Source: Candidatus Marinacidobacterales bacterium (GTDB lineage Bacteria > Acidobacteriota > Vicinamibacteria > Marinacidobacterales > SMYC01). Taken from it: 64,000 bases of DNA. The position numbers and the translations under genes are program-made. The notes beneath the pieces are model-generated. The model saw nothing but the letters and a program-made list of their open reading frames with translations, did not search any database and was not told the DNA's origin. This document shows positions 41,503 through 46,757 of this stretch, one piece after another (the first letter of the stretch is position 1; each line of letters opens with the position of its first letter). Location of the stretch: contig CBDCYI010000009.1 of the NCBI GenBank assembly GCA_965224085.1, positions 320,001-384,000 of the forward strand. The letters run 5' to 3'.

Positions 41503-43527
41503 ATGAACATCCGAATTCTTGCCACCTTGTCACTTTTCGCCATCGGGAGCGGCGCGTTTGCCGCCTCCGAGTCCAACCGTCTTACCGTCGATCGCTATCT
41601 GGATTGGGAAGACGTCGCGCGTCCCACGCTTTCACCCGATGGCCGCCAAGTTCTCTACGAACGGCGGTGGGTGGACGCCGTCAACGACCGCTGGGAATCC
41701 GCGCTTTGGATCATGGAGGCCGACGGATCCCGGAACCGCTTCCTCGTCAAAGGCTCGTCCGCACGCTGGTCGCCTGATGGGACGCGCATTGCTTTTCTTG
41801 CTGAAGGCGAGCCCGAAGGCACGCAGCTTTTCGTCCGCTGGATGGACGCCGAAGGCGCGGTGAGCCAGGTGACGCGGGTGCGCGAGACACCGTCCAACAT
41901 TTCGTGGTCGCCCGACGGGGGCTCCCTCGCGTTCCAGATGGTCGTACCGCCCGAGAAGGACGGGCGCTGGAGCATCGACATGCCGAAGCCGCCCGAAGGC
42001 GCCGAGTGGACGCGTCCTCCCAAGATTGTCGAGCGGCTCGATTACCGCCGCGACCGCATCGGCTACTTCCCTGCCGGGTTCCGGCACCTCTTTGTTGTCG
42101 ACGCCGATGGCGGCACGCCGCACGCCGTCACGGACGGCGACTGGCATCACGACGACTACCGCTTTATGCCCGATGGACGCTCGCTCGTCTTCCGCTCACT
42201 GCGTGTCGACGATGCCGAGCATCAGTGGCGCGAGTCCGAGATCTACAAGGCTGACATCGCTACGGGAGTAATCCAGCAACTTACACGACGCGCTGGGCCC
42301 GATCGCGGTCCGGTCCCCTCACCGGATGGCAGTCACATCGCGTATCTCGGGCACGACATGTCGGACGACACTTACACCGAGGAAGGCCTCTATGTCATGG
42401 CATCGGATGGGTCCGAGCCTTACGTCGTCGCGTCCGAGATGGGTCGGCGCCCGGGCAATCTCGAATGGGCGAAAGACGGAAGCGGTATTTATTTCACTGC
42501 CCAGGTCCAAGGGACGTCGAACTTGTATATCGCGCCTCTCGATGGAACACCGCGCCAAATCACGAGCGGCAACCACATGGTGACCGTGACCGATATCGAG
42601 GCCGGCCGCGCCGTAGGAACGCTGAGCAGCTACGCCGTCCCCAAGAACCTCATCACTTTCGAGCTCGAGAGCCCCGCGGAGTTGGCGACGCTTCACGTGA
42701 CGAATCGCGGCGTTCTCGCGGAAGTGGAGCTCGGAGAAGTCGAAGAGCTCTGGTACGACTCGGTCGACGACCTTCGGATCCATGGATGGATCGTCAAACC
42801 ACCCGATTTCGATCCGAACAAGAAGTACCCGCTCATCCTTCGCATCCATGGGGGCCCGCACTCGATGTATCACGCGGGCTTCGATTTCAAGAATCAGAAC
42901 CACGCGGCCAACGGTTATGTCGTGCTCTATACCAATCCCCGTGGAAGCTCCGGTTATGGCAGCCCTTTCGGCAACGCCATCGAGAACGCCTACCCCGACA
43001 AAGACTATGACGATCTGATGGCCGGCGTCGACGAGATCGTCAGCCGCGGCTACATCGACGAGCGCAACTTGTTCGTTTATGGCGGAAGCGGCGGCGGTGT
43101 CCTCACTTCTTGGATCGTCGGTCACACGAGCCGGTTTACCGCGGCGGTCGCCAAAGCGCCCGTGACCAACTGGCTCAGCTTTGTCGGCACGACGGACGGC
43201 TCTTCGTGGTACCGCAACTTCGACGCGATGCCCTGGGACGATCCGAGCGAGCACTTGAGACGCTCCCCGTTGATGTATGTCGGCAACGTCACCACGCCGA
43301 CCCTTCTCATCACGGGCGAGAAAGATCTGCGAACGCCCATGGAGCAGACAGAGCAGTATTACCGCGCGCTCAAGATGCGTAAGATACCCACGGCCATGAT
43401 CCGGCTCACCGACGGGTGGCACAGCCGAAGCCTCCCGCCCACCAACTTCATGAGGGTCCAGCTCTACCTGAGGAACTGGTTCGAACGCTTCATGGTGACG
43501 GAGGCCACTTCCACAGAGCAACCGTAA
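41503..43527 (+). CDS. S9 family (acylaminoacyl/dipeptidyl) peptidase
   Basis: Signal peptide, PD40 repeats, HGGPH, NPRGSSGYG, GGSGGG nucleophile, D-L-R, GWH. Confidence 0.93.
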   Translation: MNIRILATLSLFAIGSGAFAASESNRLTVDRYLDWEDVARPTLSPDGRQVLYERRWVDAVNDRWESALWIMEADGSRNRFLVKGSSARWSPDGTRIAFLAEGEPEGTQLFVRWMDAEGAVSQVTRVRETPSNISWSPDGGSLAFQMVVPPEKDGRWSIDMPKPPEGAEWTRPPKIVERLDYRRDRIGYFPAGFRHLFVVDADGGTPHAVTDGDWHHDDYRFMPDGRSLVFRSLRVDDAEHQWRESEIYKADIATGVIQQLTRRAGPDRGPVPSPDGSHIAYLGHDMSDDTYTEEGLYVMASDGSEPYVVASEMGRRPGNLEWAKDGSGIYFTAQVQGTSNLYIAPLDGTPRQITSGNHMVTVTDIEAGRAVGTLSSYAVPKNLITFELESPAELATLHVTNRGVLAEVELGEVEELWYDSVDDLRIHGWIVKPPDFDPNKKYPLILRIHGGPHSMYHAGFDFKNQNHAANGYVVLYTNPRGSSGYGSPFGNAIENAYPDKDYDDLMAGVDEIVSRGYIDERNLFVYGGSGGGVLTSWIVGHTSRFTAAVAKAPVTNWLSFVGTTDGSSWYRNFDAMPWDDPSEHLRRSPLMYVGNVTTPTLLITGEKDLRTPMEQTEQYYRALKMRKIPTAMIRLTDGWHSRSLPPTNFMRVQLYLRNWFERFMVTEATSTEQP

Positions 43528-43689
43528 GCTTCAAGAGGACGCTTCTGAACACGGGTAAGCTGCTCGGCGCGTTCTTGCTTGCTGCCGCCGGCGCGCACGC
43601 GGGTAAAGGTGCGGACGATGAAGCTCTCAAGAAGCTTCCTCGAGCCGAGAGGGTAGCAATCCTCAACGCACAGAGCTGGGTCTTCGACA

Positions 43690-43990
43690 TGTTGCAAAAC
43701 GGTGAGGAGAGCTCTTCGCGGAATATGAACTGGGACACCGTTTGGTACTCCCGGGGAAACCAGACCCAGACGGGTTGGGAAGCCGAGATCGTCGTCCCCT
43801 TCAAATCTCTACGGTTCGACGCGCCCGAAGACGGCCGCGAGATCCTGTTCGGCATCGGCTTCAAGCGCAACCTTCCACGGAAGAACGAGGAGACCTATTG
43901 GCCCTTCGTCGGGAATGACTCGACATGGTATCGCCCCGCGGAGATGGGGACTCCATGGTCTGAAGAACATCCGTCCAGGACGCGCGCTGA
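43690..43990 (+). pseudogene. DUF5916 / CBM9-like protein fragment
   Basis: NMNWDTVW...GWEAEIVVPFKSLRF...RNLPRKNEETYW. Confidence 0.65.
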
Positions 43991-44083
43991 GCGTGAAGCT
44001 CAACTATCTCTTCGCGTTTTGAACTGGGTAGCTCTTCAGCAAGTCCACCATGTTTTGGTAGCTGCCGGGTCGGTCTTCGTTCA

Positions 44084-44220
44084 TTACTCCGCAGTAACGA
44101 TGGCGCTTATCCCCGAATCCCCGACGGCACTCGGGTCCGCGCCGAGCTCGAGCAGCATCGCGGCACTTTCCGCGTTTCCGGAATTCACCACGTCACGAAG
44201 TCTTTCGTTCAAGTTCGATG
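44084..44220 (-). pseudogene. ankyrin-repeat fragment
   Basis: LRDVVNSGNAESAAMLLELGADPSAVGDSGISA. Confidence 0.5.
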
Positions 44221-44576
44221 CCGCCAGCGGGGGCACGCGCCGCGCTTGTCGAGAAGGGCGAGGCTTTCTTTCGCGCCCCATGAAAGCGCCGTTTCGAACG
44301 GAGCGAAGTCACCGTCAGGTCCCTCCGCAAGTGGGCTGACGAACGCGCAGAGCGCAGCCCGTTCGTCCGCGCCAACGTCGATGAAACGCGCACCGACACG
44401 AACCCACGCCTCGGAGGAAAGACGGAGATCCACACGCTTTACGGCAGTTCTCAAATCCGCTCTTTCGTCAAGTGGACTTTTGGCCAAACGAGAAACGGAC
44501 CGGCCGTCAAGCCAGCTCGAGGCCTTCACATCTGTGTTTGACGCTTGTCGATGTGACCACTAGGTTAACTTGAGGC

Positions 44577-44969
44577 ATGGGACGTGAGTTGCGGAACTTG
44601 AGCGGTCAACCCGACCGCGACCTCGCGCCTCTAGTGGCCGACATTACAAAGCACGAAACACTCGAAGACGTTTTTCGATGGGTGCGAAGCCTCGGTATCC
44701 ATGACGGCACTGAGAATCTCATCAAGCAGGATGAGTTCACCCACGATGCGATTTTTCCCTATCGTGACAGGCTTTACGTCGTGTATGGCGTGACGTGACT
44801 CGGAGCCGTAACGGCCGTCTCCGTGTGGGACCATCGGCCGTCAGCAGAAGAAATCTTAGCGGATCGATTGACGCAAGGTTGGGAGCCCAGCGCATCGCTT
44901 CTCGTCGATGGCGAGCGCGTGCTCGGATACGCTAGCTGCCTGGTGGATACGGATCACTCCCCGAAATAG
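44577..44969 (+). CDS. putative 130-aa selenoprotein (TGA 44796-44798 read as Sec); 73-aa hypothetical protein if TGA is a stop
   Basis: QDEFTHD...LYVVYGVT-TGA-LGAVTAVSVWDHRPSAEEILADRLTQGW...VLGYASC, open to TAG 44969; SECIS-like hairpin downstream. Confidence 0.6.
44811..44841 (+). promoter_or_regulatory. bacterial SECIS-like stem-loop
   Basis: ACGGCCG-TC-TCC-[GTGTG]-GGA-CCAT-CGGCCGT; the apical loop starts with GU, 24 nt after the UGA. Confidence 0.55.
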
Positions 44970-44994
44970 TGACTAGAAAGCGGGTACGCCGAGC

Positions 44995-45828
44995 TCACTC
45001 CCGCGGAAGCAAGCTCACTTGGAGGCCCGCGCCACCCGGAGTGAAAATCGGAGAGAGGGCAAACCGGGTGTCGCCATAGCCAAGGGTTACCGTGCGGCCC
45101 GCTAGAAAGCCGACGGCGGCGCCGAAGACGACATCACTCAGGAAGTGCTGGTTCTCACTCAAACGAGACGCCGCCACGTAGCCCGCCACGCCATAAGCGG
45201 GCAAGCCGACCTTCCATCCGTAGCGCCTCTGCAGCACCGTCGCGGTGGCAAAGGCGCCAGAGGAATGTCCGGATGGGAAGGACCGCGTGTTGCTCTCGTC
45301 CGGACGCGTCCGCCCAACGCTGTATTTGAGTATTTGCGTCATGGCCTGGCTCAAGATCTGGGCCCGAACCAGATCGCGGCCGAGAGCTTCGATCTCCGGA
45401 TCGGAGACGATTTTGCCGATGCCAAACGTCACGAAGGCGCCGCCCACTTGAACGAGGCTCGATCCCAGTACTTCACCGGCCTCGAAGGCAGTATCCGTTC
45501 CCGATCCATCGAGACCCTCTGTGTTCAATCCACTCGTCTGTACGGCTTGGTCGAAGGGCTTGGCCACGGCGGCGGCACCGAGCCCTGCACCTAGAATCAG
45601 CAGGGTCTCTTTGGACGTGAAGACGGTACGAAAGTCCAAAGCGATTTGGCGGTAGAGTCGCGGCGCGGGAGGGGCGCTTTCCGCAACCCATGAGGGGTCC
45701 AGCTTGTCGTCCCAAAAGCCAGGGCCGGGCGCGAAGAACTTGTCTTTCGCTTTGGATTCCGCGAGCAGGATCGGCCCGGTGCCGAGGATCGATACGAGCG
45801 CAAGGAGAGTGATTCTCGTGTTACTCAT
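44995..45828 (-). CDS. PAP2 family phosphatase
   Basis: KYSVGRTRP, SFPSGH, SRLSENQHFLSDV. Confidence 0.92.
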   Translation of the reverse strand: MSNTRITLLALVSILGTGPILLAESKAKDKFFAPGPGFWDDKLDPSWVAESAPPAPRLYRQIALDFRTVFTSKETLLILGAGLGAAAVAKPFDQAVQTSGLNTEGLDGSGTDTAFEAGEVLGSSLVQVGGAFVTFGIGKIVSDPEIEALGRDLVRAQILSQAMTQILKYSVGRTRPDESNTRSFPSGHSSGAFATATVLQRRYGWKVGLPAYGVAGYVAASRLSENQHFLSDVVFGAAVGFLAGRTVTLGYGDTRFALSPIFTPGGAGLQVSLLPRE

Positions 45829-46210: not shown

Positions 46211-46757
46211 TAGTGTCTCTTCCGGGGATGGTCGAAACCCCTCGCCTTTAGGCGAAGAGAAGATCGTGGTATTGTGGTCGCGTGCGTCACTACAGGCACG
46301 GAGCGCACACGAAAACGGACCTAAAAGCGCACATCGTTTGGATACCGAAATATCGTAAAAAGGTTTTGATCGGTCCAGTAGCGGTTCGTGTGCGCGATCT
46401 GATTCGTCAGATCGCGATGGAACATGAGCTGCACATAATCTCGGGTAAGGTTGCACGCGACCACGTCCACGTGTTCGTATCCTACCGACCACACCAGGAC
46501 CTTGAGTACGATCGTGCAGTGGCTAAAAGGAATAAGCTCCCGAGTACTCCTTCAGGAGTTTGCTCACCTGAGGAAGAAGTTTTGGGGCCGGCACTTCTGG
46601 GCCCGAGGATATCTGGCGGTGAGTTCAGGAAGCATAACGGACGAGATGGTAAAGGAGCACATAGACTCCCAGGATGGCGAGCCTCTTCACGACGACAGTC
46701 AATTTCCAATTGACAGCCCTTGAAGCCACCGCCTTCTAGGCGGTGGTTGTTCACTTA
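46211..46757 (+). mobile_element. IS200/IS605 family element (tnpA only)
   Basis: Left hairpin TCGCCT-TT-AGGCGA (from 46242), right hairpin AGCCACCGCCT-TCT-AGGCGGTGGTT followed by TTCAC 46750-46754; boundaries approximate. Confidence 0.85.
46282..46723 (+). pseudogene. tnpA: IS200-type Y1 HUH transposase, frameshift near 46500
   Basis: HIVWIPKYRKKVL, DHVHVF (HUH) / LKGISSR, HFWARGY. Confidence 0.88.

Follow-up and report, generated by a model that had tools for sequence, protein, structure and literature searches.

The window, the 64,000-nucleotide stretch of DNA analysed here, carries on its forward strand a gene of 130 codons whose 74th codon is an in-frame TGA (Table 1). An initial annotation of these letters had described a 73-codon open reading frame running from an ATG to this TGA, a frame that stays open for 56 codons beyond it as far as a TAG (44967-44969), and a read-through product with a QDEFTHD motif and its sole cysteine at residue 121; each of these elements is present in the sequence as claimed. 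The whole genome to which the window belongs holds one copy of the gene, with a single TGA inside. Four public DNA runs, which stem from two studies, have contigs that match the region 44500-45000 with zero differences (one of the runs may be the window's own source), which argues that the TGA is not an assembly error. We consider, with a probability of a little under nine in ten, that the locus is a real gene for a selenoprotein of an uncatalogued family. Judged by comparison with its relatives, codon 74 is very probably decoded as selenocysteine (Sec).

Table 1. Features of the 130-codon gene and of the hairpins behind its TGA, in window coordinates
Feature	Position	Strand	Basis
Complete putative selenoprotein gene: ATG, UGA at codon 74, TAG; 130 codons	44577-44969	+	ORF reading; homologs spanning both halves in one frame
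In-frame TGA, very probably read as selenocysteine (Sec74); motif T-T/V-U-L-G	44796-44798	+	TGA at 93/99 loci, TGC/TGT at 6/99
QDEFTHD motif, residues 51-57, nearly invariant; candidate active-site His/Asp	44727-44747	+	Conservation among 84 distinct Sec-form proteins
Cys121 (GYASC), sole cysteine; candidate partner of Sec74	44937-44939	+	Cys in 83/84 distinct Sec-form proteins
Family-conserved SECIS core, class B: stem GUCUC (44817-44821) with GGGAC (44827-44831), loop CGUGU (44822-44826)	44817-44831	+	RNAalifold consensus of 16 class B sequences
Longer window-specific hairpin: outer 7-bp stem, 44811-44817 with 44835-44841	44811-44841	+	Minimum-energy fold

Relatives of the gene were compared at 99 loci. 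Besides the window itself, these are two matches in genome contigs (three minus one remnant), 16 loci obtained by sampling 401 genomes of the window's phylum, and 80 metagenomic loci, kept out of at least 576 confirmed stretches. Across these loci, which come from Acidobacteriota, Gemmatimonadota and metagenomes, codon 74 is TGA in 93 cases, TGC in four and TGT in two, and every TGA-form has exactly one stop within the matched frame. Homologs thus keep either TGA or a Cys codon at position 74, the pattern to which the initial annotation had pointed as support for its reading. The TGA-forms comprise 76 distinct 51-nt sequences and 84 distinct proteins and are therefore not copies of one sequence; protein identities among relatives fall to about 37%. 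One in-frame TGA occurs in 13 of the 17 Acidobacteriota matches from the phylum sample, and a sample of 251 Gemmatimonadota genomes contains the gene in seven, with one TGA in all seven. A further sample, centred on an Acidobacteriota metagenome-assembled genome (MAG) with a copy of the gene (locus L002), consists of the same contigs as the phylum sample; the window's genome is accordingly that of an acidobacterium, and these two tallies are not independent. The family is spread over Acidobacteriota, Gemmatimonadota and metagenomes mainly of soil type; most members carry Sec, with Cys in its place in a few lineages. In a tree of 88 proteins, Cys-forms are nested inside Sec clades at least twice.

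The same position marks the family in protein databases. A word-indexed search returned two relatives, each of exactly 73 aa and with the same final residue, and an exhaustive HMMER search of 1.84 billion representative proteins gave 124 matches. Aligned to the family profile, 28 of these prove to be N-terminal fragments whose last residue is exactly residue 73, and 70 to be C-terminal ones that start after residue 74. The database names are 'hypothetical protein'. Annotation routinely mistakes selenoprotein genes for truncated ORFs, and the T-U-L-G family appears as dozens of hypothetical fragments of 73 aa and about 50 aa. In 25 full-length relatives and one further row that spans the site, the residue in column 74 is C in 12 cases (12 of the 25 full-length proteins in the alignment), W in four, S in four and R in two; G, P, V and a gap account for one case each, although the profile alignment places the V and the gap differently. 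The occurrence of W, S, R, G or P in some full-length relatives indicates that the residue is not indispensable everywhere. The proteins with W, S, R or G are P0004, P0008, P0017 and P0026, together with P0007, P0011, P0016, P0018, P0022, P0027 and P0074; for each of these four residues, a single base change in TGA yields one of its codons, and the W calls may be TGA codons read by gene callers with code 4. The protein P0075 (541 aa, eight matched stretches) was considered as a possible domain repeat and rejected, the match being of low complexity.

The machinery for Sec insertion, whose presence the initial annotation had proposed to confirm, is complete in the window's genome: selA (550 bits), selB (365 bits), selD (280 bits) and a tRNA-Sec, which scores 74 bits in Rfam and has the anticodon TCA according to ARAGORN. 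The three protein genes are free of internal stops, which indicates that TGA is not a general sense codon in this genome. Within the phylum sample, selA was found in all 12 other TGA-form genomes and in all three Cys-form genomes; selA is above the cut-off in 296 of the 401 genomes (a tally that includes the unpublished genomes G049, G152 and G024), and its co-occurrence with TGA-forms is therefore weakly informative. Two incomplete assemblies gave partial results, with selB found and selA not in a Gemmatimonadaceae MAG, and selA found and no selB at E-values up to 1e-60 in the L002 MAG. The selD match of the window's genome (locus L014, G000:C5:1545162-1546073, minus strand) lies in an open frame of 774 aa, much longer than SelD proteins usually are (311 positions in the profile), and may be a fusion with another domain.

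The genome also supplies its own point of reference. Its fdhA gene (locus L125, G000:C5:2096968-2099964, minus strand) reads ARL-U-HGPTV around a single in-frame TGA, which is followed by GGUGGCCA-GUU-UGGCCGCC, a hairpin of 8 bp with a GUU apex that places G-U at nucleotides 23-24. The organism thereby has another selenoprotein gene, whose SECIS can serve as a reference. The mechanism by which UGA is recoded is already known, and the one we propose for the present gene follows it. Sec-tRNA(Sec), delivered by SelB, would decode the UGA of codon 74, and what recruits SelB would be a short coding-sequence hairpin, close behind the UGA, that shows G-U in its apical loop; in the window, the recruiting hairpin would be GUCUC-CGUGU-GGGAC.

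The evidence for such a hairpin comes from an ungapped alignment of the 76 distinct sequences, with columns counted from the U of UGA. A first structure, in which columns 15-21 pair with 24-30, has 86.8% of its cells paired and 55 double-change cells, as against 16.5 +/- 3.1 in shuffled alignments, none of which (0 of 500) reaches 55. Its covariation score is 0.290, compared with at most 0.189 for controls with slid partners. Pair 15-30, which joins one wobble position to another, occurs as six pair types (GC 29, CG 13, AU 8, GU 3, UG 3 and UA 1). Pair 21-24, likewise wobble with wobble, is GC in 53 sequences and AU in 21, so that the loop reads either GGUC or AGUU, with no intermediates. Covariation of the hairpin, which the initial annotation had suggested looking for, is thus found above both shuffles and slid controls, with compensatory changes at wobble positions. 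A second structure, pairing columns 21-26 with 32-37, has 79.2% of its cells paired.

These two structures belong to different subsets of the family. When the sequences are split by the codon at columns 25-27, Ala defines class A (60 sequences) and Ser defines class B (16 sequences, the window included). The RNAalifold consensus of class A is a stem of columns 15-20 with 25-30 closed by a tetraloop, and pairs 17-28 to 21-24 are formed in 60 of 60 sequences. This hairpin, of the form (G)ACGGC-GGUC/AGUU-GCCGU(C), lies 6 nt upstream of the class B position and is the one used by most relatives. The class B consensus is a stem of columns 21-26 with 32-37 around a 5-nt loop, which reads CGUGU in six sequences, GGUCU in six, AGUUU in two, and AGUGU and UGUAU in one each. 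Pairs 22-36, 24-34, 25-33 and 26-32 are formed in all 16 class B sequences, although 25-33 is partly circular since the split column is also part of this pair; pair 23-35 is formed in 15 of 16 and shows one compensatory change to C-G. All 16 class B sequences use GAC as the Asp codon, and column 36 is C in only 27 of 60 class A sequences. In both classes, every apical loop contains G-U.

Stability gives a less decisive picture. The Sec-forms of class A average -11.9 kcal/mol, as against -9.0 for synonymously recoded sequences (median z -1.32; 15 of 60 at the 5% level), and the corresponding class B means are -10.0 and -7.5 (median z -0.85; 5 of 16 at the 5% level), so that the family-wide excess of stability over recoding is modest. 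In the five Cys-forms the mean is -5.5 kcal/mol, and the hairpin is gone from four. A search of Rfam detected no SECIS family in the window between 44700 and 44900 at E-values up to 10, nor at 10 related loci at E-values up to 1.

The two registers are mutually exclusive and coupled to the Ala or Ser codon at columns 25-27, within columns 15-37 of the alignment. They interchange at least three times on well-supported branches, and six times by parsimony, in a quick maximum-likelihood tree of 88 proteins from which L002 and short rows were left out and in which the hairpin-encoded columns were included, a weakness of this reconstruction. The coding hairpin behind the UGA of the organism's own formate dehydrogenase gene is likewise rich in G+C and presents G-U apically some 20-28 nt after the UGA; its loop has G23-U24, and the class A loops (GGUC or AGUU) have G22-U23, within one base. 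In E. coli fdhF the SECIS has a GGUC loop at nucleotides 22-25, of which G23 and U24 contact SelB. In contrast to formate dehydrogenase, the stem here has 5-7 bp, and two exclusive registers, with the loop at nucleotides 21-24 or 27-31, exist within one family. They form a compact natural data set for the requirements of SelB, and the set of hairpins could improve bacterial SECIS models and annotation pipelines.

In the window's own sequence, the hairpin proposed initially, with an ACGGCCG/CGGCCGT stem, a UCC/GGA stem inside it and, 24 nt behind the UGA, a GUGUG loop, is present and is the minimum-energy structure given by RNAfold. Its interpretation as a SECIS holds for one part of it. The shorter core inside it, GUCUC-CGUGU-GGGAC, into which the window fragment folds, is the conserved element, a 5-6 bp hairpin in a different register, whereas the outer stem of 7 bp is specific to the window, with 55.8% of cells paired over the 76 sequences; for the long hairpin as a whole, 58.4% of cells are paired across the family and covariation does not exceed that of the controls. 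The core presents its apical G-U at nucleotides 28-29, counted from the U of UGA. It is weak, having 5 bp of which one is a G-U pair, and a C-C mismatch at 21-37 that is absent from 14 of the 16 class B sequences; the window-specific outer stem may compensate for this mismatch and add stability. The long hairpin is no more stable than dinucleotide shuffles (z = 0.26; 117 of 200 shuffles equally or more stable), and the window hairpin compared with synonymous recoding gives z = -0.12. As neither test is significant, the SECIS claim rests on covariation.

Among the 84 distinct Sec-form proteins, D52, E53, H56 and C121 are each kept in 83 and D57 in 82, and the list of nearly invariant residues further includes T73, U74, G76, W84, P88, R97, G101, W102, G112 and G117. 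The near invariance of Sec74, Cys121, His56 and the acidic residues Asp52, Glu53 and Asp57 suggests a redox or metal site. A confident AlphaFold2 model built with 15 sequences (pLDDT 86.7, pTM 0.82) predicts a strand at residues 5-8, helices at 13-23 and 29-38, strands at 47-50, 55-62, 66-73 and 77-84, and helices at 90-99 and 120-126. Residue 74 is placed by the model in the turn between strands 66-73 and 77-84, and His56 should lie beside it, as it starts a predicted strand antiparallel to 66-73. The model found no fold relatives in the PDB (best E-value 0.13, TM-score at most 0.35), and a sequence search of the PDB gave no meaningful match (best E-value 0.19). The 130-residue sequence, when read for a signal peptide or hydrophobic segment, shows none, and we propose that the protein is cytoplasmic. 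No fused or longer forms were seen among 8000 candidates, which is weak evidence.

From these sequence features we would tentatively picture the protein as a small thiol/selenol oxidoreductase, an assignment that we hold possible rather than probable. Sec74, at the tip of the predicted beta-hairpin, would be the reactive centre, Cys121 would most likely be its resolving partner through a selenenylsulfide bond, and His56 and Asp57 would act as acid-base helpers. Peroxiredoxin (Prx), glutathione peroxidase (GPX) and thioredoxin-like selenoproteins with a resolving Cys likewise combine one Sec with a distant conserved Cys, an arrangement compatible with a selenenylsulfide cycle. The present protein differs from them in having no CxxU, UxxC or TxxU motif, no Pfam match and no PDB fold match (none with E < 0.1); by our own reading, its predicted topology, a beta element followed by two helices, a meander of four strands and further helices, is unlike a thioredoxin fold. 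Genome context offers little guidance. BLAST clustering of flanking ORFs gave a best shared family present in five loci alone, and by Pfam no family has more than four members among 149 flanking ORFs from 87 loci, so no operon partner emerges. Peroxiredoxin/redoxin or glutathione-peroxidase (GSHPx) families stand beside a few loci (3, 3 and 2 of the 149 ORFs), too few to weigh.

The same residues could serve another purpose. Sec74, Cys121, His56 and the acidic residues might bind a metal or metalloid, in a chaperone, a sensor or a detoxification protein, without redox cycling. A nearly invariant set of Sec, Cys, His, Asp and Glu is typical of metal ligands, and several predicted metal-binding selenoproteins are listed in section 7 of a 2026 review (PMC13188914). 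However, the metal motifs CxxU, UxxC and CU are absent, the motif being T-U-L-G, and none of the 149 flanking ORFs is a metal-resistance or transporter gene; we regard this function as rather unlikely. Still less probable is a nucleophile-His-Asp triad formed by Sec or Cys at position 74 with His56 and Asp57, as in a small hydrolase or transferase. All three residues are indeed nearly invariant, and the predicted secondary structure would bring His56 next to residue 74, but the fold matches no cysteine hydrolase and a triad leaves the conservation of Cys121 in 83 of 84 proteins unexplained. Sec in hydrolytic triads is, moreover, unusual.

All three functions presuppose a selenoprotein. UGA might instead be read through without selenium, by a near-cognate tRNA that inserts Trp or Cys or by another programmed mechanism, with the hairpin merely slowing termination. 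UGA followed by C is a leaky stop context, one that 72 of the 76 distinct sequences share; W, too, stands at column 74 in four database relatives, although these calls may stem from gene callers using code 4. What makes such read-through very improbable is that the sense replacement in the family is Cys, the hallmark of Sec positions, that the G-U apical loop sits at the same distance as in the SECIS of the organism's own fdhA, and that the Sec machinery is complete.

A true stop at the TGA, leaving either two small genes of 73 aa and about 50 aa or an untranslated downstream part, would agree with the way in which gene callers divide the family into 28 N-terminal and 70 C-terminal database fragments, one of the latter deposited as a hypothetical protein of 61 aa. 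It is nevertheless contradicted by the sequence beyond the TGA. Over codons +1 to +30, differences per site at codon positions 1, 2 and 3 are 0.283, 0.210 and 0.577, the pattern of translated sequence. The initial annotation had looked to residues conserved downstream, and these are there: among the 84 distinct Sec-forms, L75 is kept in 77 and G76 in all 84, while W84, P88, R97, G101, W102, G112, G117 and C121 are kept in 81-84, and conservation reaches 85% or more at sixteen positions beyond residue 74. No start codon is conserved downstream of the TGA among the relatives, L002 having none before codon +21, and the Cys-forms are single uninterrupted ORFs of 125-128 aa. We therefore give a true stop hardly any weight. 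A pseudogene created by a nonsense lesion is next to impossible: the window does contain broken genes, such as an IS200-type transposase spread over two frames (46282-46723), but in two phyla and in metagenomes, at 93 of 99 loci, the TGA stands at one and the same codon, the relatives are far from near-copies, and the TGA loci show no other stop or frameshift apart from one frameshift in L002. The caveat, raised in the initial annotation, that nonsense lesions are common in this window does not apply to the 130-codon gene, whereas its reading as a 130-aa Sec74 protein is borne out by the conserved TGA or Cys, the downstream conservation, the covarying hairpin and the Sec machinery.

The selenoprotein so defined belongs to none of the families with which we compared it. 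Pfam and NCBIfam (June 2026) returned 0 families for the query at E-values up to 1, and for 26 members of the family scattered single chance matches alone; the view that no known selenoprotein family fits, expressed when the gene was first noticed, thus extends to the relatives, which no model of either collection matches. PADLOC and PHROGs gave no match for the query or its relatives, and the ESM Atlas, searched with the Cys homolog P0006, gave no usable match. The catalogue published in 2026 (Table 1 of PMC13188914) counts 119 families and subfamilies of prokaryotic selenoproteins and gives every one an identifier from Pfam, NCBIfam, CDD or PANTHER. The T-U-L-G motif occurs in none of the 119, and of their models those in Pfam and NCBIfam, the two collections compared, do not match the family. 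In the passages of the deep-Sep (PMC12013277) and BSepDB papers covered here no such family appears, though their supplementary tables might list it; a full-text literature search gave no description of a T-U-L-G family and nothing closer.

The nearest parallels are of kind rather than of sequence. The hypothetical proteins DG, DW and DF, as presented in the portion of the deep-Sep paper considered here (PMC12013277), and GOS_B and GOS_C (Table 1 of PMC13188914) are likewise small predicted selenoproteins, without a known domain or an assigned function, and were recognized by Sec/Cys pairing, TGA homologs and a SECIS-like hairpin. In contrast to the present protein and 25 of its relatives, which match none of them, these proteins are, within the portions of the sources considered, represented by the NCBIfam models NF049953, NF041197, NF049942, NF041374 and NF045500. 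Within the range of these comparisons, three things are new: the protein family, the fold predicted for it and the two-register SECIS. One family would be added to the catalogue of 119, from the soil phyla Acidobacteriota and Gemmatimonadota, and since it has no recognizable domain or solved structural relative, its Sec/Cys/His site may do chemistry that is new to selenium. It is tempting to go further and to see in the gene the founding member of an uncatalogued group of selenoenzymes that is widespread in soil Acidobacteriota and Gemmatimonadota, with a fold lacking a solved relative, a Sec74-His56-Cys121 centre, and a SECIS that moved repeatedly between two overlapping registers in step with a single Ala/Ser codon change. 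This fuller picture is speculative, with the odds somewhat against it; if true, it would offer a natural example of a SECIS that shifts position without loss of Sec decoding.

A few copies of the gene depart from the common form. The Acidobacteriota MAG copy L002 (5001-5356) has, in addition to the conserved TGA, a change of frame between its halves (frame 2 for profile positions 3-57, frame 1 for 62-122), which is either an assembly error or the mark of a decaying copy. In an Aggregatilineales genome (locus L003, 5010-5105), the match is confined to query residues 85-128, the family's C-terminal third, and the upstream half is missing. This copy is probably a remnant; the gene directly before it looks like a pterin-4a-carbinolamine dehydratase. 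The Gemmatimonadota genome G530 has a partial second copy (profile positions 88-124, without a stop) about 800 nt from a full copy that contains the TGA, the two being listed at G530:C1:222575-222685 and 223505-223867.

In the window, about 1 kb (43416-44570) separates the gene from an S9 peptidase gene (41503-43527) and holds only ORFs without a Pfam match, at 43416-44339 on the plus strand and 44209-44529 on the minus strand; this stretch may represent a gene in decay or sequence that lacks annotation. On the other side, the IS200-type Y1 transposase lies on the plus strand in two overlapping frames, an ORF at 46282-46713 that corresponds to positions 2-65 of Pfam Y1_Tnp and another at 46451-46723 that corresponds to positions 62-121. 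It is probably a frameshifted pseudogene, consistent with the earlier remark on lesions in the window.
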